Shown here in pieces: positions 36,499 through 48,664 of a DNA stretch of 64,000 nt; within the stretch, counting starts at the first letter, position 1; each line of letters begins with the position of its first letter. The notes below the pieces were generated by a model. That model ran no database searches. It saw nothing but the letters and a program-made list of their open reading frames with translations, and was not told where the DNA came from. Source of the stretch: Candidatus Kapaibacterium sp. (lineage in GTDB: Bacteria; Bacteroidota; Ignavibacteria; Kapaibacteriales; UBA2268); the NCBI GenBank assembly GCA_963665665.1, contig OY762428.1:288001-352000 (forward strand), written 5' to 3'. The position numbers and the translations under genes are program-made.

Positions 36499-37701
36499 AT
36501 GGGACCTTTAGTGCCTTTTGGAATTATTGGATCAGAATTTAACTACCTGATTGCAGCCCTTATTGGTTTTGCATTTGGATATATTCTGGAAAGGGCTGGT
36601 TTTTCTACGTCAAGAAAACTTGTCGGCGTATTTTATGGTTATGATTTTGTTGTTCTCAGGGTATTTTTTACTGCTGCCGCAACAGCAATGACGGGATTGA
36701 TTGTTCTTGATTATCTTGGCTTCATTGATTTTAGTTTTATATATATCAACCCACTGTTCACATGGCCGATGATAGTTGGTGGCATCATTATGGGATTTGG
36801 ATTCATTCTTGGTGGATTTTGTCCTGGAACAAGTATGGCTGCTGCTGCAATTGGAAAAATTGACGCAATGGTATTTTTACTTGGCAGTTTTATCGGAATA
36901 TTTTTCTTCGGGGAAATATTCAGCGGAATTAAAGATTTCTACCTGAGCGGCTCGATGGGGCCAATATTCGTTTATGATTCTCTCGGTATCTCAAGAAGCC
37001 TCTTTGCAGCTATTCTCGGAGTTATTTCAATAGTATCGTTCATAGTAACTTCTGTAATTGAGAAAAAAGTAAGTTATGGCATCGAACCTAATCACCCGAA
37101 ATATAAAATGGCCATTCCGGCTATAACGATTGGATTCGCGGCGGCAATTATTATTTTGATCTTACCCGACGAACGCGAGGGATTAATTGATAAACCGGCT
37201 GATCAAATTGCTGCCGAATATAGTGATGATCTTCGTTATATATCACCGGAAGAAGCTGCTTACGAGATATATTACAACACAGGAAAATTCAATTTTATTG
37301 ATGTTCGAAGCCCTGAAGAATACAAGAAAATGTGTATGCCAAAAGCATTTAATATTGAAACCCAAAATATGCAGAACAAAGCAAACAGCGCATACCTGAA
37401 CCAACCGGGAAAAACAGCCGTATTCTATTCAAAAAACGAGGATGAAGCCGCCAAAGCATTTATTATTGCCCAAAAAGAGGGGTTTTCAAATATTGCAATT
37501 CTAAAGGACGGATTCAGTAACTTCGCGGATAAGTATATTACCGGGAAAGCAAAGATTGGCAGAGCTGCATTTATTGGCGGAAACACAGAAAACTTTCAGG
37601 ACAAAGTTATCAGTTTATTCAAATCGGATTCAACTTTGACCAAACCCAGAAAGAAAAAAGAAATAGTTGTAAAAGCAGTTAAAGTTCAGGGTGGATGTTA
37701 G
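36499..37701 (+). CDS. YeeE/YedE family protein fused to rhodanese-like domain with C-terminal GGC
   Basis: FGYILERAGF, GFCPGT; FIDVRSPEEY and LKDG rhodanese motifs; ends KVQGGC. Confidence 0.85.
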   Translation: MGPLVPFGIIGSEFNYLIAALIGFAFGYILERAGFSTSRKLVGVFYGYDFVVLRVFFTAAATAMTGLIVLDYLGFIDFSFIYINPLFTWPMIVGGIIMGFGFILGGFCPGTSMAAAAIGKIDAMVFLLGSFIGIFFFGEIFSGIKDFYLSGSMGPIFVYDSLGISRSLFAAILGVISIVSFIVTSVIEKKVSYGIEPNHPKYKMAIPAITIGFAAAIIILILPDEREGLIDKPADQIAAEYSDDLRYISPEEAAYEIYYNTGKFNFIDVRSPEEYKKMCMPKAFNIETQNMQNKANSAYLNQPGKTAVFYSKNEDEAAKAFIIAQKEGFSNIAILKDGFSNFADKYITGKAKIGRAAFIGGNTENFQDKVISLFKSDSTLTKPRKKKEIVVKAVKVQGGC

Positions 37702-37998: not shown

Positions 37999-38673
37999 AT
38001 GTGCGGAAGATTTGCTTTATCTGCAAAAACTGAAGATGTTGAAAAACTGGTAAAACCTTCGAGGTTTACCAAAGAATTGGTGTCAAGATATAATATAGCA
38101 CCTTCGCAGAAAATTCATATTCTCAGGAATAATTCTGATAATATTGCCGAGGAATTCCGATGGGGGCTGATACCTTCGTGGGCAAAGGATATTTCTATCG
38201 CTAATAAAATGATAAATGCCCGCTCGGAAAGTCTTTCAGAAAAACCTGCTTTCAGGAATCTTCTGAAATCAAAGAGATGCCTGATTTACGCTGACGGTTT
38301 CTATGAATGGAGAAAAGGCGGACGGTCGAAAATACCGTATTTTATTCATTTCAAAGATTCAAGGCCCTTTACATTTGCCGGCCTCTGGGATAAGTGGATC
38401 AGCCCGGATGGAGAGATAATCGAATCGGCTGTTATCATTACCACCGAACCCAATTCTGTAGTCGCACCGATACACAATCGTATGCCGGTAATTTTGAAAC
38501 CTGAATTCAGGAAATCATGGCTGTATGAAGATTTTTCAAACATCAACACAGAAGAATTATTAATTCCTTGTAATCCAGATGAGATGGAAGCATTCGAGGT
38601 TTCAACAATGGTTAACAGCCCTGTAAATGATTCGCCTGAATGTATTCAGGCTCCGGAGGGCCGCTTATTCTGA
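37999..38673 (+). CDS. SOS response-associated peptidase (SRAP/YedK/HMCES) abasic-site crosslinking protein
   Basis: MCGRF N-terminus, RYNIAPSQ, WGLIP, INARSE, GFYEW, HNRMP. Confidence 0.95.
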   Translation: MCGRFALSAKTEDVEKLVKPSRFTKELVSRYNIAPSQKIHILRNNSDNIAEEFRWGLIPSWAKDISIANKMINARSESLSEKPAFRNLLKSKRCLIYADGFYEWRKGGRSKIPYFIHFKDSRPFTFAGLWDKWISPDGEIIESAVIITTEPNSVVAPIHNRMPVILKPEFRKSWLYEDFSNINTEELLIPCNPDEMEAFEVSTMVNSPVNDSPECIQAPEGRLF

Positions 38674-38741
38674 CAGCAATAAAGAGAAAGTTTAATCGTG
38701 CAGAAAATGTATATTATTGAAATTATCGAAACAGGGATTTA

Positions 38742-39548
38742 ATGAAGATTGTTACATGGAATATAAACGGCTACAGATCGATCAGCGGCCAGAACCCAAG
38801 CAAGCGCTATGATAAAGTAACAAAAGAAAACAAGCTTTTTGAATATGTTGAAAATGAGAAACCCGACATCCTGATGATGCAGGAAACAAAGGCAAACGAA
38901 GACCAGATAAACGAAGAATTACGCTGTCCGCCGGGTTACCATGCCTATTACCATTCCTGCGAAGTAAAAAAAGGATATAGCGGAACAGCAATATTCACAA
39001 AGGAAGAACCAAAAGAAATAATCAGGAAATTCGGTATCGACAGGTTTGACGGCGAAGGGCGGGTTCTTGGGGCTGATTTCGGAGAATTCATCATTTTCAA
39101 TGTTTATTTCCCCAAAGGATATGCTGATTCCGAAAGGCTGACCTTTAAGCTCGATTTTTACGATGAATTTTTTGATTATGTCGAGAAATTAAGATCCGGA
39201 GGCAGAAAAATAATTGTTTCAGGCGATTACAATACTGCTCATAATGAGATCGACCTGGCACGTCCAAAACAAAATACAGGCACATCGGGATTTATGCCCG
39301 AGGAAAGAGTAAAACTTGACGAGTTGCAAAGCAGAGGGTGGGTTGACGCATTCCGGAAGTTCGAAAAGGAAAACGGACATTATACCTGGTGGAGCCAGCG
39401 CGGACGAGCACGTGAAAACAACGTTGGATGGCGTATTGATTACCATTGGCTGACTGAAGACCTGCTGCCTAATCTGAAAAATGCCTACCAGCAACCAGAA
39501 CAAACAGGCAGTGATCACTGTCCCGTTGTTGCTGAAATGGAATTTTAG
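38742..39548 (+). CDS. xth: Exodeoxyribonuclease III / AP endonuclease
   Basis: WNING, QETK, GYSG, GDYNTAH, GWRIDY, SDHCP. Confidence 0.95.
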   Translation: MKIVTWNINGYRSISGQNPSKRYDKVTKENKLFEYVENEKPDILMMQETKANEDQINEELRCPPGYHAYYHSCEVKKGYSGTAIFTKEEPKEIIRKFGIDRFDGEGRVLGADFGEFIIFNVYFPKGYADSERLTFKLDFYDEFFDYVEKLRSGGRKIIVSGDYNTAHNEIDLARPKQNTGTSGFMPEERVKLDELQSRGWVDAFRKFEKENGHYTWWSQRGRARENNVGWRIDYHWLTEDLLPNLKNAYQQPEQTGSDHCPVVAEMEF

Positions 39549-39686
39549 TATCTACCGAAAATATTTTGTACAATTCAAAATATTGAAAATAATTTCCTAC
39601 TTTGAAAATTAATTGAAATATTAATCGTTATAGATTTTGTGAATATTATTTTTGATTTCTTCATTGAAAATTAACCGGGTTTGTAT

Positions 39687-40352
39687 ATGAAAGTTTTGAT
39701 ACTGAATTGTCATAAAGAAGATAATGATGATATTAACCGGATTCTTGATCCTTTTATTAAGGGTATTGAAGAATCTGGAGCCGAAGTAGAGCAGATCGAT
39801 ACCCGATCGCTTGAAATCAGTCCCTGCCGGGGATGTACCTCATCGATTAGCTTCAAATCTGATGGGCATTGTTTCTGCGAAGATGATATGAATTCCTTAT
39901 ATCCAAAATTCAGAGAATCTGATATTTGGGTTTTCACATCTTCCGACGACGGGAATTGCAATAATCCCAAACTGATGAACATAATGGACAGAATGGAACC
40001 TCTTTTTCCGAAAACATTTGAAGATGATACTGATATGAAAGGAAAAATTGCTTTTATATCTACAACAAAATCAAATACCGGCGAAAAAATCCAAACTGTG
40101 GCCGATGAGTTTATGAGCATAAGTGCCCTGTTCAATAAAGAATATGCCGGTGCATTACTCAGGCCCCAGGCTTCGTCGATCAAAGTTGTGCAAAATCTTG
40201 GAGGAAATATCGATGATATTTTCCAGGCCGCCAAAGACGCTGGAAAGCAAATAATTTTAAACGGCAAAATTGAATCCAATACGATTAAAACATTTGAGAG
40301 AAGCCTTTTTGATGATAAAAAGCTTCTAGAAGTTCTTGCGTCAAAAGTATAA
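39687..40352 (+). CDS. Flavodoxin-like fold protein (iron-sulfur flavoprotein / FMN reductase family)
   Basis: ISPCRGC...HCFCEDDM cluster-type motif, SDIWVF, MDR, AKDAGK; FMN-binding loops look degenerate. Confidence 0.7.
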   Translation: MKVLILNCHKEDNDDINRILDPFIKGIEESGAEVEQIDTRSLEISPCRGCTSSISFKSDGHCFCEDDMNSLYPKFRESDIWVFTSSDDGNCNNPKLMNIMDRMEPLFPKTFEDDTDMKGKIAFISTTKSNTGEKIQTVADEFMSISALFNKEYAGALLRPQASSIKVVQNLGGNIDDIFQAAKDAGKQIILNGKIESNTIKTFERSLFDDKKLLEVLASKV

Positions 40353-40373: not shown

Positions 40374-40402
40374 AAAAACCACCAGTTCTGGTGGTTTTTT
40401 TT
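40374..40402 (+). terminator. Intrinsic terminator
   Basis: AAAAACCACCAG-tt-CTGGTGGTTTTT hairpin with T run. Confidence 0.8.
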
Positions 40403-40647
40403 GTTAATCCTTTATTATCAACGATTACAATTGAAAACCCTCGGAAAATTTTAATGTAATATTCCTGAAAAGCAATATTTTTTCTAAAAACTTTAAACTT
40501 TTTCTTTTTCAATGTGTATATGAAACAAGAGTAATTTATCTTATTTTGAATTGTTATGATTTGTAACTATTTTTGAAATACACATATTGATTGCGAAATA
40601 TAGGTTTAAATGAAAGATTAACGAATATTAATGCAGAAGTCGGGAAA

Positions 40648-41990
40648 ATGAAAAAACAGTTTTGGATAGTATTGATTTTAATAATTGGTTCGGTAAATGT
40701 TTCCGCACAATGGGAATGCAGAAGTAAACTTGCAGCTCATCTTAGCCCTATAGCAGGATCTGATTTGCTATGGGCTGCCGAATTCACTCTTGGCGGCGGA
40801 GTTTTAAGCCATAATAATATATATAATTACCTTGGGCTTGTTGCTCTGGACTACAGCTTCGATAATAGTACTTTTTATATTGAAGGTGGCGGCAAATACT
40901 GGCAGAACAGACAGGAAAACCCGGATGTGATCTTCAAAAAAGGACGGCCCGGTTTACGTGAGGCATATTTTAAAAACAGATCAAAATTTGGCGATATTAC
41001 AATAGGCCTTCAATCAATTACACTTAATGATGACTACCTTTTGAATGAAAGAATACTCGGGCTGAATTACAAGCTAAATTCAGGTAAATGGATGATAAAT
41101 CTTACCGGAGGTACTGTTTCACAGGATTTTTCACGTCAGGGAACATTTTGCGGTACATGTTTCTTATACGACATTATACCCGGCAGACAAAGAAATTTAA
41201 TCAGCCACGAACTGGGCCGGTCAAATTTTACTGTAATTTCATTTAGTTATTCCCCGCGTTTAGAAGTTGATGAAGAATACGAAGAATTAGCGGACGATGA
41301 GTTTGCTGATGTTTCAGATGAGTTTTCTGACGCAGGGGATGAATTTGAAGATGTTTCAGACGTGTTTTCAGATGCATCTGATGAATTCGGAGAATTTGAC
41401 GAAACAGTAGCAAAATCTACCCCATTTGCGAAGATTGAAGAAACCGGAGCAGTTCTATATACAGAATTTGGAAGCATTTACAATAACCTTCCCATTTTGG
41501 GTGGATTATTCTTTGACTTGTCATTCTTTGAAGACTGGCATATCAAACCGGAATTATTATACCAGGCCCAGAATGAAAACAACGGAATTATATTTAACTT
41601 TTCTCTGAGAAGAGATATTATTTGGGAAAACACTCATAAAACAGGATTTGTACTTGAATATACGGGATTTTCCGCAATTGATGACAATGCTTTCGCGGCA
41701 AATTCATTTCAAATATTTTCGCCGGTGAAGTTTTAAGGCTGGATATTCCCGAATCTGACATTGTTTTGGTTGGTATAAGGCATATAATACCATCATCCAA
41801 ACTTCATTTCAAACTTCAGTACGCGGAACTGATAGATGAACCGGGTATGAGGGAAATTGACTTCCAGGCCGGTAAAACATTTTTTGACCACTTGCTGGTT
41901 AACGTTATATTTGGATATATTGAAAGTAATTTGATAATCAACAGGGATTCAGCGCTTCTTGCCAGGATGGAAATAAGGCTAAGTTTTTAA
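40648..41990 (+). pseudogene. Putative outer-membrane beta-barrel protein interrupted by a single frameshift (~447 aa if repaired)
   Basis: Signal peptide MKKQFW...VSA-Q, alternating beta-strand pattern; frame 1 stops at 41736 but the -1 frame is open from 41685 (SNIFAGEVLRLD...) to a beta-signal end MEIRLSF at 41990. Confidence 0.7.
41296..41388 (+). repeat. 21-bp / 7-aa acidic tandem repeat inside the barrel gene
   Basis: DEFADVS-DEFSDAG-DEFEDVS-DVFSDAS-DEF. Confidence 0.85.
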
Positions 41991-42010
41991 TATTTTGTAA
42001 GGAAAAAACG

Positions 42011-42277
42011 ATGAAAAGAAGAGAATTCTGCAGAAGCTTCCTTGGTTTTGGAAGCACAATTGTACTGGCCGGAGCAATAAGTTCATGTGGTGTACTCGAA
42101 GCAGGAGTTTACACGATAAACCAGGAAAATTGCGATGGTTGCGGAGACTGTGTTAACTCATGTAGTTACGGTGCTATCGAATTGAAAGATGATAAAGCAG
42201 CCATTCTGACATCAAAATGCGAAGGCTGCGGTAAATGTAAAAGTAAATGTGATAACGGGGCGATCAGTGAAGAGTAA
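42011..42277 (+). CDS. Tat-signal lipoprotein 2x[4Fe-4S] ferredoxin
   Basis: MKRREF twin-arginine, lipobox ISSC, CDGCGDCVNSC and CEGCGKCKSKC. Confidence 0.88.
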   Translation: MKRREFCRSFLGFGSTIVLAGAISSCGVLEAGVYTINQENCDGCGDCVNSCSYGAIELKDDKAAILTSKCEGCGKCKSKCDNGAISEE

Positions 42278-42296
42278 CAATAATTCAAACAGTTGT

Positions 42297-43655
42297 ATGA
42301 ACAGGAGAAATTTCCTGTCAGGAATAGGAAAAGTAACAGCAGTTGCTGCTTTTATGCCAATAATAAACGCCTGCGAAAACCCGAGCATGTATTCTGCTCT
42401 TGCAGTAAATGAGGAGCTTTGTACCGGTTGCGGAGACTGTCTTCCACATTGCTTTTACGATGCCATTGACCTGCCGGCAAAAAGTAAATACACAATACTT
42501 ACAGATACTTGTACCAGGTGTGGGCTTTGCCTTGATGCCTGCCCTGACGATGCAATTACACTTGTTCCGAGTTTATATTCAATAGATAGGGAAAAATGTA
42601 TTGAATGCGGGGAATGCCTGCCATTCTGCAAGGATAATGCCCTGATAATTACTCCAAAAAATTATACTATTAATGAGGATAAATGTATAGAATGCGGTGA
42701 ATGTATCCCATCCTGCCCCGAGGATGCTTTTGAAATTGCCGTTAAAGAATACCGGATTGATGATGACGAATGTACTGATTGCGGAGATTGCTTGAAAGTA
42801 TGCGAACCTGATGCGATCAAACTTCATATCACTGATCTGAAATATACGATTAATGATTCTTGCATTGGTTGTGGCGACTGCGTTGAGGAATGCAAAGAAG
42901 AAGGAGATGCTATCTTCTACGTCAGGGAGCATTATAATATCAGAAATGGCCGCTGCCACGGATGTATCCAGAAATGTAGTTCTGTTTGCGAGGATGATGC
43001 AATTTTTCTTGAGAGCGGAAAAGTAAAAATTGATGAAGATAAATGCACAAAATGCGGAAAGTGCCTTGAACGCTGCCCTTATGCAGCTATCAATAAAGCC
43101 TATGTCGAGATTGACCAGAATAGATGCACTAAATGTGGCGAATGTTACGGAGAATGTGAATATGATGCCATAAACAAACTGGGAACAGTTAACAACTTCA
43201 ATTCCCACATCGATCAGGATAAATGTACAAGTTGTGGTGAATGCTATACAGCATGCACCCACGAAGCAATTGATATAAAGCAGGCTTCCGAACCGGAACA
43301 TCCGGGGATTAACCAGGATAAATGCACCAACTGCGGGAAATGTATATCCGAATGCCCTTATGAAGCAATCGAAGTTGATGGATCTGACGGTGATCCTCAT
43401 ATTGACCAGGATCTGTGTACTAATTGCGGCGATTGCGTTCCCGGTTGCCCCTATGATGCAATTAATGTGAATGAATCTGAGATATTACCAAATATAGATC
43501 AGGATAAATGTTCCAAATGCGGTGATTGTTATGATGTATGTGAGGATGAATCAATTAACGCAGTTATCAGCACAGCCAGAATAATTGATGAGAACTGTTA
43601 CAAATGCGGTAAATGCCTGGAGGTTTGCCCGGAGCATGCAATTAAGAATGTTTAA
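42297..43655 (+). CDS. Tat-signal lipoprotein polyferredoxin with 14 [4Fe-4S] motifs
   Basis: MNRRNFL twin-arginine, lipobox INAC, thirteen CxxCxxCxxxC plus one CxxCxxxCxxxC motif; ATG 42297 preferred over the track start. Confidence 0.9.
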   Translation: MNRRNFLSGIGKVTAVAAFMPIINACENPSMYSALAVNEELCTGCGDCLPHCFYDAIDLPAKSKYTILTDTCTRCGLCLDACPDDAITLVPSLYSIDREKCIECGECLPFCKDNALIITPKNYTINEDKCIECGECIPSCPEDAFEIAVKEYRIDDDECTDCGDCLKVCEPDAIKLHITDLKYTINDSCIGCGDCVEECKEEGDAIFYVREHYNIRNGRCHGCIQKCSSVCEDDAIFLESGKVKIDEDKCTKCGKCLERCPYAAINKAYVEIDQNRCTKCGECYGECEYDAINKLGTVNNFNSHIDQDKCTSCGECYTACTHEAIDIKQASEPEHPGINQDKCTNCGKCISECPYEAIEVDGSDGDPHIDQDLCTNCGDCVPGCPYDAINVNESEILPNIDQDKCSKCGDCYDVCEDESINAVISTARIIDENCYKCGKCLEVCPEHAIKNV

Positions 43656-43656
43656 T

Positions 43657-44046
43657 ATGCGAAGGTCAATAATTATATTGTTGCTCCTTGTTCCCACATT
43701 TTTCATATCCGGAAAATTATTAGCCGGTTCCGGGAAAGCTGTTGCAAAAGTCAAAGTCATCTCTCCGGAAACTCATAAATATAACATCGGAGATACTCTT
43801 AATGTTATTATAATGATAAAACTGCCAAAAGAAATTTGCCTGGAAGGAATGAAGTTCACAAAAGTTTTTGCAAGTGGAATGGATATTATTAGCGAAAAAA
43901 ACTGGAAACCTGTAAAACCCGGTTTTTGGAAAAAGAAATTGAAACTGGTTTTTAATAATCACAATAACCAATTCGGACAACTTACAATATATAGAAAAGC
44001 TGATAAAGGCAGCCTTATTCATAAAGAAAAATTTTACCTGCAATAG
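43657..44046 (+). CDS. Small basic exported hypothetical protein
   Basis: Signal peptide MRRSIIILLLL...LLA; beta-rich, Lys-rich mature part; directly abuts both neighbours. Confidence 0.75.
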   Translation: MRRSIIILLLLVPTFFISGKLLAGSGKAVAKVKVISPETHKYNIGDTLNVIIMIKLPKEICLEGMKFTKVFASGMDIISEKNWKPVKPGFWKKKLKLVFNNHNNQFGQLTIYRKADKGSLIHKEKFYLQ

Positions 44047-45069
44047 ATGAATACTTTAGTTAACATATCGACAGGCAAAAAAAGCTTCAGGGAGTTACTT
44101 GCCCGCTGGATTGTCATTGGCGGAATAATATTAATGGCTGCCGATACAATATACATGGCTTACAACGGAATAAACGCTGCAAACCGGCAATTGTGTATTA
44201 TATACTGTTCGCTGCCGCGTTGGGCTTTTTTCACATGGGAATATATCATCGAACTTCTTCTTGTTGTCCTGGTAGGAGTTTTTGCAGGAGTTCTGATTGA
44301 GCACTATTCCAAAAAAATAAAAAGATTTTACCCCAAAAATCCGTTTCTAGCATTTGTTTACGCTTCAATTATTCCTGTATGTTCCTGTGGTGTCATTCCT
44401 GTTATTGATTCCCTGAAGGGCGATATTAAGTTGAAAACTATCATCACATTTGTGATTGCAGCACCTTTGCTAAACCCTTATATAATATTTATTTCATTCA
44501 GCGTTTTGGGTTGGGAATACGCTTTGATTCGAATTGCCGCCTCATTTGTGATTGCTGTTGGTGGAGGATTCCTGGCAGAAAGCGTTTTTAGAAAATTCAA
44601 CCTGAATATCCAGAACGGGAAAAAGCAATGCTCTTCAAGCTGCGCTGTCCATGAAAAAGACCTGTTCGTAAAGACACTCAAAATCATGCGCAAGCTTCTG
44701 CCCTATATAATAATTGCCGGAGCACTTACACTATCATTCGAATTTCTTACGCCAAAAAGATTTCTGGAAACACTGAATTTTTCTAATGAACCATTATCAA
44801 TGGCGCTTATGCTTGTTGTCGGTATTCCAATCTATGTTTGCAACGGAGCTGATGTATTATTTCTACGCCCGCTATTGGAATTCACTGATCTTTCCCTGGC
44901 ATCAGCCATGATCTTTTCCCTTGCTTCATCATCAGTATGTATTTCTTCAATCGTTATGCTTGCAAAATATCTTGGCCGAAAACAGACTGCTATTCTTATC
45001 GGAATATTGACCGTATTAATTTTCGGTGTAGCTTTTACAATAAATGTTGTAAGCGGTATCATGGGGTAA
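44047..45069 (+). CDS. Permease, ArsP/DUF318 family
   Basis: IPVCSCGVIP, AAPLLNP, IPIYVC motifs, multiple TM helices, central CSSSC linker. Confidence 0.8.
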   Translation: MNTLVNISTGKKSFRELLARWIVIGGIILMAADTIYMAYNGINAANRQLCIIYCSLPRWAFFTWEYIIELLLVVLVGVFAGVLIEHYSKKIKRFYPKNPFLAFVYASIIPVCSCGVIPVIDSLKGDIKLKTIITFVIAAPLLNPYIIFISFSVLGWEYALIRIAASFVIAVGGGFLAESVFRKFNLNIQNGKKQCSSSCAVHEKDLFVKTLKIMRKLLPYIIIAGALTLSFEFLTPKRFLETLNFSNEPLSMALMLVVGIPIYVCNGADVLFLRPLLEFTDLSLASAMIFSLASSSVCISSIVMLAKYLGRKQTAILIGILTVLIFGVAFTINVVSGIMG

Positions 45070-45227: not shown

Positions 45228-46082
45228 ATGAAAAAAAACAATCCTGCAATTACCGAGATATACATAAAAACAATAAGAAAAAAAATTGACAAACAGGATG
45301 TTTCTATCCCCGTCCTTTCAAAAGTTGCCTCGCAGGTATTTACAATAACAAAAGATATTAATGCAGGTATGGCTAAAATTGCGGATCTTGTTCACCGTGA
45401 TCAGTCGCTGGCGGGACACCTTCTGAAAGCTGCGAATTCTTCTGCCGTTTCTTCAAGGGTTGAAATTCAGTCAATTCACCAGGCAGTTCAGTTGCTGGGA
45501 GCAAGAATGATAAGCCAGGTGGCGATGTCAATTATTGTCGGTAAAAATTTCTTTAGAACAAATAGTTATAAGGATATTGTACAAAGGCTTCGGCTTCTGT
45601 CATTGATCTCTTCACAGTATGCCCGTGAGATCAGTTCAAATATGAATCTGAATACTGAACAACTCTACCTTTGTGGATTGATTCACAATATTGGCAAGCC
45701 CGTTATTGTTCAGCTCGTAGCACAAATTGATGAAAGATCAGGTGGAACTTTGAATGAAGATCAGTTTGATTTACTTTTCGATAATTATCATATAGAAATT
45801 GAGGAACTTATTGCCGAAAAATGGAATTTACCCCAAATGATAACAAGTGTCGCGCTAAATTACCATCAATATGATAAAATTGATGAATTCCAAACGGAAG
45901 CAGCAGTTATCAATCTTGCAGATAAATTGGCCCGGCTTTCTATTTCCGAAGATGATACCCAAAGAGAATCATTAACGACAGACCCGGTGGTTGCTTTCCT
46001 GGGACTAAGTGAAAATGATATAATTGACCTGTTTGAAAAAAGGGAGGATATCAAAGAAATTGCAAACGGCCTCATGTTTTAG
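45228..46082 (+). CDS. HDOD domain protein
   Basis: IPVL, DQSLAGHLLKAANS, AVQLLG, GLIHNIGK, WNLP, LAD. Confidence 0.9.
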   Translation: MKKNNPAITEIYIKTIRKKIDKQDVSIPVLSKVASQVFTITKDINAGMAKIADLVHRDQSLAGHLLKAANSSAVSSRVEIQSIHQAVQLLGARMISQVAMSIIVGKNFFRTNSYKDIVQRLRLLSLISSQYAREISSNMNLNTEQLYLCGLIHNIGKPVIVQLVAQIDERSGGTLNEDQFDLLFDNYHIEIEELIAEKWNLPQMITSVALNYHQYDKIDEFQTEAAVINLADKLARLSISEDDTQRESLTTDPVVAFLGLSENDIIDLFEKREDIKEIANGLMF

Positions 46083-47260: not shown

Positions 47261-47485
47261 CAGTGTTAGAGTTAAAATTATTTGATGTAAAAAACAGATA
47301 AAATATCTTACTACTTCAAAATTATCCATACCTAAACCGGAGATATGCTTCCCACAAACTTAACATCTAATAACTTGCCATTTTTATAAGTGGAACTACT
47401 TAATTTAATTATTAATTATACTAAATATCATTAGAATGCGTTTTCACGTTATATTACTATTTTTTCATCTATTGTGGGGACTTAT

Positions 47486-48664
47486 ATGTTTAAAAAATCT
47501 ATACTCCTTTTGCTTATAGCATTTATTTGTTGGCCTTCTGGTTTATCCTTTTCTCAGGAAAAAGATTTATATCTTGGAATCGGAGCCGGTTTGTCGCGAG
47601 GCATGAACGAAGGCAAAAGAGACGAAAGAACCATTGGCGCTGTATTCGGGGCCAACGCACTAATTACTAATGCCATCGGAAAGGGTTTGACTCCGGAATT
47701 CAATTTCAACTATTTTAAAAATGGTACGGACGAATTCGGGCTTTATTCCCAATACGAAACTACTCACATGACATTCGACTTGCGTATGAGGTTTTATCCT
47801 TTTGAGCAGAAAGGCTTGCAGCCTTATGCTTTTGCCGGACTCGGAGCAATAATGTTCAATGTTGATGAAATGCCTCCAAATCCCGATCCCGAATCCGAGG
47901 ACAGTGGTGTGGCATTGAATATCCCTGTTGGGGTTGGTATTTCATATTTCTTCAACGAAACTGTCGGGCTGGACTTTAATGCCGGAGCTTACATGACCAG
48001 TACTGATGATATAAACCCGGTTTGGGATGATGTGACTGATGCAAACTGGGTTGGGAAGCTTTCGGTCCTTTTCAGGGTTCACAGGTTTGAAAAGGACACA
48101 GATGGCGACGGCCTTTCAGATAAAGAAGAAATGAAACTTGGAACAGATCCGAATAATCCTGATTCTGACGGCGACGGTCTGATGGACGGAGAGGAAGTTA
48201 ATGAATACAAAACAGATCCTCTCAATCCGGATACAGACGGCGGAGGAATAAAAGACGGCGTTGAAGTACAAAACGGAGCCGATCCTCTTGACGGGGATGA
48301 CGACATTCTAAGTATCAAACCCGGTGAAAAACTTATCCTGAAAAACATCGAGTTCGAATTTGCCAAATCCAGAATAACTAATAAATCAGAGAGGATTCTT
48401 GGATTTGCAGTTAAAGCTTTGAAAGCCGCTGAAAACATGGAAATTGAAATTGTTGGCCATACTGACGATGTTGGTGATATTGAAACCAACCTGAAACTCT
48501 CTCAGGACCGTGCTGATGCTGTTAAGAAATGGCTTGTTGACAATGGAATTGACGAGTCAAGGTTATCGACCCGTGGCGAAGGGCCTAATCAGCCTCTTGT
48601 TCCGAATACAAATGCCACAAACAGGCAGAAAAACAGAAGAGTGGAATTTATCAGAACAAAATAA
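47486..48664 (+). CDS. OmpA family protein: N-terminal beta-barrel, DxDGDG calcium-binding repeats, C-terminal peptidoglycan-binding domain
   Basis: DTDGDGL/DSDGDGL/DTDGGG repeats; GHTD...NLKLSQDRA...NRRVEF. Confidence 0.92.
   Translation: MFKKSILLLLIAFICWPSGLSFSQEKDLYLGIGAGLSRGMNEGKRDERTIGAVFGANALITNAIGKGLTPEFNFNYFKNGTDEFGLYSQYETTHMTFDLRMRFYPFEQKGLQPYAFAGLGAIMFNVDEMPPNPDPESEDSGVALNIPVGVGISYFFNETVGLDFNAGAYMTSTDDINPVWDDVTDANWVGKLSVLFRVHRFEKDTDGDGLSDKEEMKLGTDPNNPDSDGDGLMDGEEVNEYKTDPLNPDTDGGGIKDGVEVQNGADPLDGDDDILSIKPGEKLILKNIEFEFAKSRITNKSERILGFAVKALKAAENMEIEIVGHTDDVGDIETNLKLSQDRADAVKKWLVDNGIDESRLSTRGEGPNQPLVPNTNATNRQKNRRVEFIRTK

Follow-up and report, generated by a model that had tools for sequence, protein, structure and literature searches.

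We describe here a cluster of five genes from Candidatus Kapaibacterium sp. (assembly GCA_963665665.1, contig OY762428.1), found at positions 40648-45069 of a 64,000-nt stretch of that genome (the window; coordinates below are positions within it, on the forward strand, unless another locus is named), and interpret it as the distal half of an envelope redox module of seven genes, which is rare, conserved and found in anaerobic bacteria. In addition to the components encoded in the window, namely a predicted outer-membrane β-barrel, two lipid-anchored iron-sulfur (Fe-S) ferredoxins, a small exported protein (small2) and an ArsP-type permease, the complete module comprises a NapH-like membrane Fe-S protein and a small lipoprotein (small1), both encoded upstream of the barrel at most related loci. 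We propose, at a probability of about 0.5, that the module acts as an extracytoplasmic Fe-S electron chain, which would reduce a small thiophilic inorganic substrate reaching it via a dedicated channel and, where present, the permease.

The five open reading frames (ORFs) are co-oriented, separated by gaps of 20, 19, 1 and 0 nt, and arranged as follows (lengths in amino acids, aa):

40648..41990, + strand: barrel gene, which the record splits into two frames (40648-41736, then on to 41990)
42011..42277, + strand: Fd2, a ferredoxin lipoprotein of 88 aa (Fer4, E 5.3e-12)
42297..43655, + strand: polyferredoxin lipoprotein of 452 aa (Fer4, E 3.5e-74)
43657..44046, + strand: small2, a basic exported β-sandwich protein of 129 aa, without family match
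44047..45069, + strand: ArsP_1/DUF318-type permease of 340 aa (PF03773, E 6.6e-28)

An earlier note on this DNA had described the same arrangement, five tightly packed co-oriented genes after a terminator, and the ORFs, the gaps and the upstream hairpin (see below) all agree with it. Its assignments of two lipoproteins of the twin-arginine translocation (Tat) type with 2 and 14 [4Fe-4S] motifs, of a small basic exported protein and of an ArsP/DUF318 permease with a Cys motif are likewise borne out by the motif counts, export signals, isoelectric point (pI) and family scores given below. Pfam and NCBIfam scans of the window genes returned no catalytic subunit for the cluster, as the same note had it, no NapA, NosZ, RdhA, NirS or ExaA among the window genes, and no Ftr1, P19 or cupredoxin family in the cluster; the haem motif CxxCH occurs in none of the five proteins.

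A scan of one genome per species recovered 52 related loci, 50 of which (L012-L061) contain a usable barrel, and the ORFs of each locus were compared with the window proteins and with those of the corresponding locus in the related genome G017. The genes do co-occur elsewhere, the outcome on which the earlier note had made its reading depend, and they recur in the order small1, NapH-like membrane Fe-S protein, barrel, ferredoxin lipoprotein(s), small2 and ArsP-type permease. Small1 lies upstream of the barrel at 48 of the 50 loci, both misses falling at contig starts, and a NapH-like gene is present at 39, as a separate neighbor of the barrel at 30 of them and fused to it at nine. A same-strand ferredoxin lipoprotein follows the barrel at 38 loci; the 12 misses divide evenly between six with less than 800 nt of contig left and six with at least 7.8 kb and no ferredoxin, and five loci without a downstream ferredoxin (L049-L052 and L059) carry a divergent ferredoxin lipoprotein of 92-106 aa upstream instead. 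Small2 and the permease are found at 27 loci. The carriers, judged by record titles, are mostly Bacteroidota (Saccharicrinis, Draconibacterium, Carboxylicivirga, Plebeiibacterium, Prolixibacteraceae, metagenome-assembled Bacteroidales genomes and Bacteroides reticulotermitis), several of them cultured isolates, and Zixibacteria are also among the carriers of barrel homologues. The five most widespread families at the related loci, those to which annotation extended, are four components of the cluster itself and a DUF2271-like family (12 loci); among the flanking families none beyond the cluster is widespread, the next after the DUF2271-like one occurring at seven loci.

Individual loci show local additions. 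Between barrel and polyferredoxin, L027 (9224-10926) has two additional genes for lipoproteins (121 and 410 aa), also present in the same place in L030, whose products have no Pfam match and, in the larger one, acidic residues right behind the anchor Cys. Four Draconibacterium loci (L018, L022, L028 and L029, at ~10.5-15.2 kb on the minus strand) have genes of 597, 583 and 168 aa just 3' of the cluster, with N-termini that resemble hydrogenase subunits when judged by eye.

Gene fusions tie the upstream components to the barrel. The NapH-barrel fusion ORFs at the nine loci (~880-930 aa) retain the signal-like hydrophobic segment and the AQWEC sequence of the barrel, and three more fusions of this kind (856-904 aa) were found among 1.84 billion representative proteins. 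Two further database proteins (424 and 480 aa) join small1, via a Ser/Thr/Pro-rich linker, to a NapH-like N-terminus. These fusions imply that small1, the NapH-like protein and the barrel form one functional unit, and they also indicate its topology, placing the 2x[4Fe-4S] ferredoxin domain of the NapH-like protein in the cytoplasm and both small1 (periplasmic) and the acidic region outside it.

The window's own genome (G000) has a single pair of small1 (142 aa) and NapH-like (406 aa) genes, at C1:3417563-3419225, 3.09 Mb from the window and with neither barrel nor ferredoxin gene beside it. The NapH-like protein (L069, 7005-8225) matches PF12801 (E 8.6e-14) and the NapH/MauN family TIGR02163 (E 1e-21), and DEF repeats abound in its periplasmic N-terminal region, as they do in the acidic loop of the barrel; a sequence search against the PDB returned ferredoxin domains only. 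Next to the NapH-like gene (L069 8587-13363, corresponding to G000:C1 ~3.4196-3.4244 Mb) lies a tandem duplication of a gene pair encoding a ~505-526-aa protein, the first copy of which has a sorting tail of the type IX secretion system (T9SS), followed by a Cys-rich exported protein of 226-237 aa without Pfam match.

The barrel gene is interrupted in the record by a frameshift, which is an assembly error. Logan contigs covering 41300-42100 from four of four public sequencing runs carry one extra T behind position 41706, at word depths of 42, 50, 25 and 3.4; three of these runs (X1-X3) derive from a single sample, which may be the one behind this assembly, and the fourth (X4) from another study, its contig differing from the record at five further positions. 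With the T restored the barrel becomes a single ORF of ~447 aa, whose C-terminal part aligns with intact homologues via a conserved SFSNLFxGEVLRLD block. A pseudogene and a programmed shift are both ruled out by the extra T in all four runs, and the "repair" that the barrel had earlier been thought to need concerns the assembly, not the gene. As a T has been lost from the T-run at 41706, other gene-breaking homopolymer errors are probably present in this single-contig assembly.

The barrel family is small and sharply bounded. A word-indexed search collected 53 barrel proteins (52 homologues and the window protein), all without a Pfam domain; the ten that bear a name in their source are always called "hypothetical protein". 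An exhaustive profile search of the 1.84 billion representatives returned 174 matches at E<=1e-3, 149 at E<=1e-10 and 113 at E<=1e-30, and the barrel occurs in one of 300 other genomes sampled evenly across the window's phylum (two of 301 when G000 is counted). The barrel, small1 and small2 make up three families without any Pfam or NCBIfam match, and the resemblance of the barrel to the Alginate_exp and OprD porins is one of fold only. The window protein has a Sec signal, a mature N-terminus QWEC, an RNGxFC loop, an acidic DEF loop and a C-terminal ...RLSF. At least 90% of 21 aligned homologues keep the Cys of AQWEC, the mature N-terminus. The CGTC motif to which attention had been drawn earlier does not hold up in the alignment: its first Cys, that of RNGxFC, is invariant among the 21 homologues and its second is not conserved, which rules it out as a metal or cluster site. 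The acidic loop described in the earlier note is present, with a length that varies from 16 to 78 residues across homologues and an invariant core limited to DEF.

An AlphaFold2 model of the intact G017 homologue, computed from the 21-sequence alignment, has 18 strands (predicted local distance difference test, pLDDT, 77.7; predicted TM-score, pTM, 0.75). Foldseek comparison with the PDB puts 18-strand porins on top, namely the C. jejuni MOMP, OmpM1, AlgE (TMq 0.57) and OccD/OprD, the AlgE/OccD/MOMP-like folds scoring TMq 0.43-0.57 at a probability of 1.00, and no Mtr entry appears among the PDB fold matches listed; the closest named cluster in the ESM Atlas is Alginate_exp (score 0.95). According to this model the first gene does encode a real β-barrel, as the earlier note had predicted. 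The model features two long conserved loops of 28-30 residues, containing RNGxFC and SFSNLF..., which on our reading of its strand order would be extracellular or in the pore, whereas the acidic loop would, by the same reading, occupy the position of a periplasmic turn. Many charged residues are invariant, which points to a specific channel.

Both ferredoxins carry the marks of exported, lipid-anchored proteins. The polyferredoxin contains 57 Cys residues and 14 cluster motifs, 13 of them canonical (CxxCxxCxxxC) and one variant (C220-C231), and Fer4 covers it in 12-13 stretches; Fd2 has two CxxCxxCxxxC motifs, at residues 41 and 70 (2x[4Fe-4S]). As read from the sequence, their N-termini combine an RRxF-type twin-arginine signal with a lipobox, namely MNRRNFLSG...IINAC in the polyferredoxin (twin-arginine NRRNFLSG, lipobox IINAC) and MKRREF...ISSC in Fd2, and TatC is present in the window's genome. 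Twin-arginine and lipobox Cys are conserved at the same positions in 21 aligned polyferredoxin orthologues, RRxF[LI] and the lipobox Cys are kept at 22 related loci, and an orthologous Tat-type Fd2 occupies the corresponding place at L016. This conservation points to export and argues against a cytoplasmic location of the ferredoxins, which would have undone the earlier interpretation. Homologue searches with the polyferredoxin yielded generic or automatic names throughout, including one homologue auto-named EhbK by its source; among 40 related genomes (24 of the same family, 16 of the same order) a comparable protein is found in G017 only (E 1.4e-29), the remaining matches being generic Fer4 proteins at E values of at least 8.2e-10. 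A complex prediction for the barrel (residues 27-448) and the polyferredoxin (31-297) gave a score of 0.05 and a mark of 0.32, which counts neither for nor against binding.

The ferredoxins at the related loci fall into two kinds. Those of Tat type, at the 22 loci just mentioned, have 6-12 cluster motifs (the four-motif ORF at L021 is cut by the contig end). At 16 other loci, mainly of Bacteroidales (L025, L035-L038, L040-L046, L053 and L055-L057, with ORFs taken at maximal length), the ferredoxins bear ordinary lipoprotein signals without twin-arginine, have 2-6 motifs and are often strung like beads on Ser/Thr/Gly linkers; those of L043, L045 and L053 exceed 270 aa with just two motifs, and both that were tested (L043 and L053) contain Big_2 domains. 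The missing twin-arginine is not due to Tat-less genomes, since TatC is present in five of five genomes tested, including those of L025, L036 and L040. Tooke et al. (PMC5449189) deal with membrane proteins integrated jointly by Sec and Tat.

The permease belongs to PF03773 (ArsP_1; 98.1 bits against a cut-off of 32.3) and carries a CSC motif (PVCSCGVIP). It reaches neither of two curated family cut-offs, scoring 74.4 bits for SO_0444 (cut-off 300) and 54.6 bits for SaoE (cut-off 325), and its orthologues at 27 loci are 42-57% identical. It is always accompanied by small2 at the related loci. Small2 is basic (mature pI 9.9; the last 100 residues of its homologues have a pI above 8.4 in 24 of 30), is exported and has invariant Cys61, Trp83 and Arg113; it lacks a family match in the Pfam and NCBIfam scans and finds a single match, at E 0.4, in a sequence-profile search of the PDB. 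Its AlphaFold2 model (pLDDT 87.1) is an eight-stranded Ig-like sandwich, for which Foldseek returns generic Ig-like matches only (AmoB-like, FixG-related, pilins, MHC; best E 1.2e-3), from which function is not inferable; the weak matches include a "FixG-related protein" (2r39, E 7.8e-3). Alignment of both groups identifies small2 as a paralogue of small1, the lipoprotein that accompanies the NapH-like protein and has conserved HRxC and RxCxKEGG motifs, with one invariant Cys kept in each group.

A possible surface component is found at 12 of the 50 loci in the form of the DUF2271-like family, as delimited by BLAST. The one member tested matches DUF2271 (E 4e-11) and has a T9SS sorting tail; the family is carried next to the cluster by L031 (10325-11152) and by 11 further loci, and TGAT is present in nine of the 12 proteins, TGST in two and neither in one. 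According to PMC8238504, DUF2271 is a substrate of ApbE flavinylation with a [S/T]GA[S/T] site. A search of the window's genome for flavinylation parts, made with DUF2271 (PF10029), gave no match.

Building on the gene content, the export signals, the synteny and the fusions, and on the barrel fold of the homologue, we propose the following scheme. Conserved adjacency and fusions suggest that the NapH-like protein feeds, or is fed by, the lipid-anchored periplasmic ferredoxins. In the direction we favor, its electrons would come from quinol or from the cytoplasmic side and go on to the Tat-exported ferredoxins (2 + 14 clusters), in the way in which NapH supplies NapG, and the Fe-S chain would then move them across the periplasm. 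There, a small thiophilic inorganic substrate would be reduced without a separate catalytic subunit; our guess is either the ion of a metal or metalloid, or sulfane sulfur. Precedents for Fe-S clusters that act directly on such substrates are CcoG (see below) and, for sulfane sulfur, the archaeal MBS complex. The substrate would pass the outer membrane via the 18-strand AlgE/OprD-like channel, and the inner membrane via the CSC permease with its β-sandwich partner small2. We thus picture the barrel as a solute channel and docking site rather than a sheath around a wire, and take it for the substrate channel because of its solute-porin size, its conserved in-pore loops and its many invariant charged residues. 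By analogy with related permeases, whose CSC motif is linked to thiophilic metals, the permease may be read as one for a thiophilic substrate. In this scheme we infer the direction of electron flow, the link to quinol, the substrate and all protein contacts.

Several observations weigh against the proposed electron chain or limit its scope. The TIGR02163 score of the NapH-like protein is 77.7 bits against a curated 213, a match at superfamily level only. The NapH-like half lies apart in this genome, without a significant upstream motif common to both halves: the test gave two matches (16 nt, two mismatches), where shuffled sequences gave 0.43 on average and at most 5. The 16 loci with twin-arginine-free ferredoxin lipoproteins, TatC being present in three of three such genomes tested, are unexplained by the model. 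The permease is optional and is absent from seven Tat-type loci with ~8 kb of downstream sequence, so that the core function must be something other than metal(loid) traffic through it. Finally, the T9SS-sorted DUF2271-like proteins at 12 loci hint at cell-surface rather than periplasmic chemistry.

The last point leads to the alternative of a haem-free conduit across the outer membrane, in which surface ferredoxins or T9SS-attached flavinylated DUF2271 proteins would reduce Fe(III), Mn(IV), humics or electrodes. The proximity of barrel and ferredoxin lipoprotein genes at 38 of the 50 loci and the nine NapH-barrel fusions fit such a conduit, as do the absence of both catalytic subunit and haem motif from the cluster and the T9SS-tailed DUF2271-like proteins, nine of the 12 with TGAT. 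The Bacteroidales-type ferredoxins, beads on Ser/Thr-rich linkers with Big_2 domains typical of surface proteins at L043 and L053, could also be placed outside the cell, and many ferredoxins have acidic residues just behind the anchor Cys that are similar to the lipoprotein surface-export signal of Bacteroidota. Against this stand the 18-strand model resembling AlgE, OccD and MOMP, inside which a two-cluster ferredoxin domain is unlikely to fit, the location of the acidic loop at a periplasmic-turn position if the strand order is read correctly, the absence of DUF2271 from the window's genome, and the general oxygen sensitivity of [4Fe-4S] ferredoxins, which would be severe at the surface. We regard a conduit of this kind as unlikely, yet worth keeping in mind. 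The earlier note had pictured the five genes as a haem-free Fe-S wire crossing the periplasm or outer membrane, by analogy with MtrAB-type conduits; the electron-transfer part is strengthened by the NapH-type partner at 39 of 50 loci and by the Tat signals, and a wire threaded through the barrel is not supported, the barrel being modelled as a porin of the AlgE/OprD/MOMP type with 18 strands and two long loops that are conserved. A broader version is rather doubtful, namely that in anaerobic Bacteroidota and relatives a haem-free Fe-S pathway takes respiratory electrons through the whole envelope to the exterior (from the NapH-like protein via ferredoxins and barrel and, in some species, to a surface DUF2271 flavoprotein) and that the Sec-exported Bacteroidales ferredoxins are matured outside the cytoplasm, where the CSC permease and the Cys-containing β-sandwich proteins would assist cluster acquisition.

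Electrons might instead flow inward, with Fe(II), sulfide, polysulfide or a reduced metal being oxidized and its electrons travelling along the ferredoxins and the NapH-like protein, to end in the quinone pool or the cytoplasm. NapH-like modules work with reductases and oxidases alike (PMC8238504, in excerpt), FtrABCD-type systems are thought to dispose of the Fe(II) electron in a like manner, and the carriers come, by their record titles, from anoxic, reduced habitats. Ferredoxins of the 2x[4Fe-4S] type, however, usually have very low potentials and are poor acceptors from Fe(II) or sulfide, and the cluster shows none of the Ftr1, P19 or cupredoxin families; we consider inward flow improbable. 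The twin-arginine-free ferredoxins invite another alternative, extracytoplasmic trafficking of Fe-S clusters or sulfur, in which the CSC permease, the Cys-bearing β-sandwich proteins and NapH-like input would build or repair clusters or carry persulfide. Its clients would be ferredoxin lipoproteins exported unfolded by Sec, in keeping with the 16 of 38 ferredoxin loci that lack the twin-arginine in spite of TatC in all three such genomes tested; the permease is present at 15 of these 16 loci vs 12 of the 22 Tat-type loci, a contrast that comes from related genomes and provides no independent statistic, and conserved HRxC and RxCxKEGG in small1, with one invariant Cys in each paralogue, would suit such a role. 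We know of no extracytoplasmic Fe-S assembly, however, though no search was aimed at it; the window's ferredoxins are of Tat type and need no such help, and the signals without twin-arginine could reflect hitch-hiking export or be atypical Tat signals, so that we give the trafficking alternative a very slim chance. That the genes have no joint function, as chance neighbors or as cytoplasmic ferredoxins with mis-called starts, might be argued from the absence of the usual NapH-like neighbor from the cluster in this genome; it is close to refuted already by synteny and fusions, given the same order at 50 loci with 26-57% protein identity, three kinds of gene fusion, signal peptides conserved in alignment and a tiny barrel family (174 of 1.84 billion representatives), and we hold it to be scarcely credible.

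No description of a cluster with barrel, Tat-lipoprotein polyferredoxin and NapH-like protein was found in a literature search to which subscription journals were mostly inaccessible, in line with the earlier note, which knew no described system with this layout; the association of an outer-membrane barrel with a NapH-type extracytosolic system is unprecedented. In diderm bacteria, electrons are known to travel past the inner membrane by multihaem cytochromes, flavinylated proteins and thiol relays. The module would add to these lipid-anchored periplasmic Fe-S chains coupled to an outer-membrane channel of their own. Its carriers are Bacteroidota of marine sediments, groundwater, digesters and the gut that are usually viewed as fermenters, and in which a transformation of metals, metalloids or sulfur, or an extracellular respiration, may have been overlooked. 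The twin-arginine-free ferredoxin lipoproteins raise the sharp question of Fe-S protein maturation outside the cytoplasm; this and cytochrome-free extracellular electron transfer in a diderm would, if true, both be new biology, and the cultured isolates among the carriers make the question directly testable. Some of the present loci might already stand among the NapH-like and DUF2271 clusters tabulated in the supplement of PMC8238504.

Immediately upstream of the cluster in the window lie:

39681-40352: FMN_red-like gene (PF03358, E 3.1e-7), unrelated to the cluster
40374..40399, + strand: terminator-like hairpin with an 11-pair stem followed by TTTGTT, which closes the FMN_red-like gene and sets the cluster apart from it

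The sequence TATTTTTG at 40568-40575, ~70 nt 5' of the barrel start, fits, as a candidate, the Bacteroidota-type -7 promoter box (TAnnTTTG). Further upstream, 36499-37701 encodes a Sulf_transp (YeeE/YedE-like) membrane domain fused to a rhodanese (E 4.9e-14 and 2.7e-12), a gene that does not stay with the cluster at other loci, and 37999-39548 holds a gene for an SOS response-associated peptidase (SRAP, E 7.7e-72) followed by an Exo_endo_phos nuclease gene (E 6.3e-32), which look like a small DNA-repair pair. Directly 3' of the permease, 45228-46082 encodes an HDOD/HD-domain protein, and 47474-48664 an OmpA-family protein with bacterial TSP3 repeats and a small barrel at its N-terminus.

Among the closest known systems is NapGH, the quinol dehydrogenase module of periplasmic nitrate reductase, along with NosR, PceC and the NapH-like extracytosolic electron-transfer systems of Meheust et al. 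(eLife 2021, PMC8238504). NapG is a Tat-exported multi-cluster ferredoxin and forms with NapH a classical pair, for which PMC8238504 cites Brondijk 2002. The module resembles this pair in joining a polytopic NapH-family protein (PF12801, CX3CP-type motifs, a C-terminal 2x[4Fe-4S] domain) to an exported redox partner, both window ferredoxins having the twin-arginine and lipobox expected of an exported Fe-S partner. Unlike NapGH, it lacks NapA or any other terminal enzyme, its ferredoxin partner is lipid-anchored with up to 14 clusters, and an outer-membrane barrel belongs to the unit, in some cases as a fusion with NapH. PMC8238504 presents the NapH family as a modular transmembrane electron-transfer device with exported partners; the periplasmic N-terminal partner in the present module is the Cys/His β-sandwich small1, not an FMN-binding domain.

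The module also recalls MtrAB, PioAB and the Pcc systems in that its barrel gene adjoins a gene for an exported multi-centre redox protein, at a gap of 20 nt in the window and likewise adjacent at 38 of the 50 loci, with the inner-membrane electron input encoded nearby. It differs from MtrAB and Pcc in having no haems and encoding no extracellular cytochrome, and its barrel, 18-stranded and AlgE/OccD-like in the homologue model, is unlike the MtrB sheath. MtrB is a sheath of 26 strands. A periplasmic Fe-S protein does occur in PioABC, namely the HiPIP PioC (PMC5566968, in excerpt). The polyferredoxin shares its tandem CxxCxxCxxxC[P] ferredoxin units with the methanogen polyferredoxins MvhB/VhuB, FwdF and EhbK, with best NCBIfam scores of 126.4 bits for VhuB (NF045874, cut-off 600) and 131 bits for FwdF (NF042909, cut-off 375). 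The methanogen proteins are cytoplasmic subunits of a hydrogenase or of formylmethanofuran dehydrogenase, whereas the window protein starts with a Tat signal and lipobox, and its gene has neither hydrogenase nor Fwd genes for neighbors.

NapH relatives that deal with metals are CcoG and, within the metal transport operon FtrABCD, the NapH-like polyferredoxin FtrD. CcoG (FixG), of the NapH family, reduces Cu(II) directly without another catalytic subunit (PMC7558416, in excerpt), and FtrABCD couples Fe(II) oxidation to transport, with FtrD as a component (PMC11966278, in excerpt). CcoG and the module have an Ig-like periplasmic domain in common, small2 weakly matching a FixG-related protein, whereas the NapH-like protein scores 30.8 bits against the 316.7 of the CcoG family TIGR02745, so that there is no CcoG-level match. 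The module is without the Ftr1, P19, cupredoxin and P-type ATPase partners of these systems, which in turn have neither barrel nor ferredoxin lipoproteins. The permease shares PF03773 and the CSC motif with the ArsP/SO_0444/SaoE group, in which this common motif is read as a thiophilic metal site (Haft, bioRxiv 10.1101/2022.07.06.499078, in excerpt); it is set apart from SO_0444 and SaoE by its pairing with the small2 β-sandwich, its place within a redox cluster and its scores below the family cut-offs. The barrel, in turn, resembles the AlgE, OprD (Occ) and MOMP porins in fold and strand number as modelled, and is distinguished from them by its signature of a QWEC N-terminus, RNGxFC, DEF and SFSNLFxGEVLRLD and by its redox gene context.

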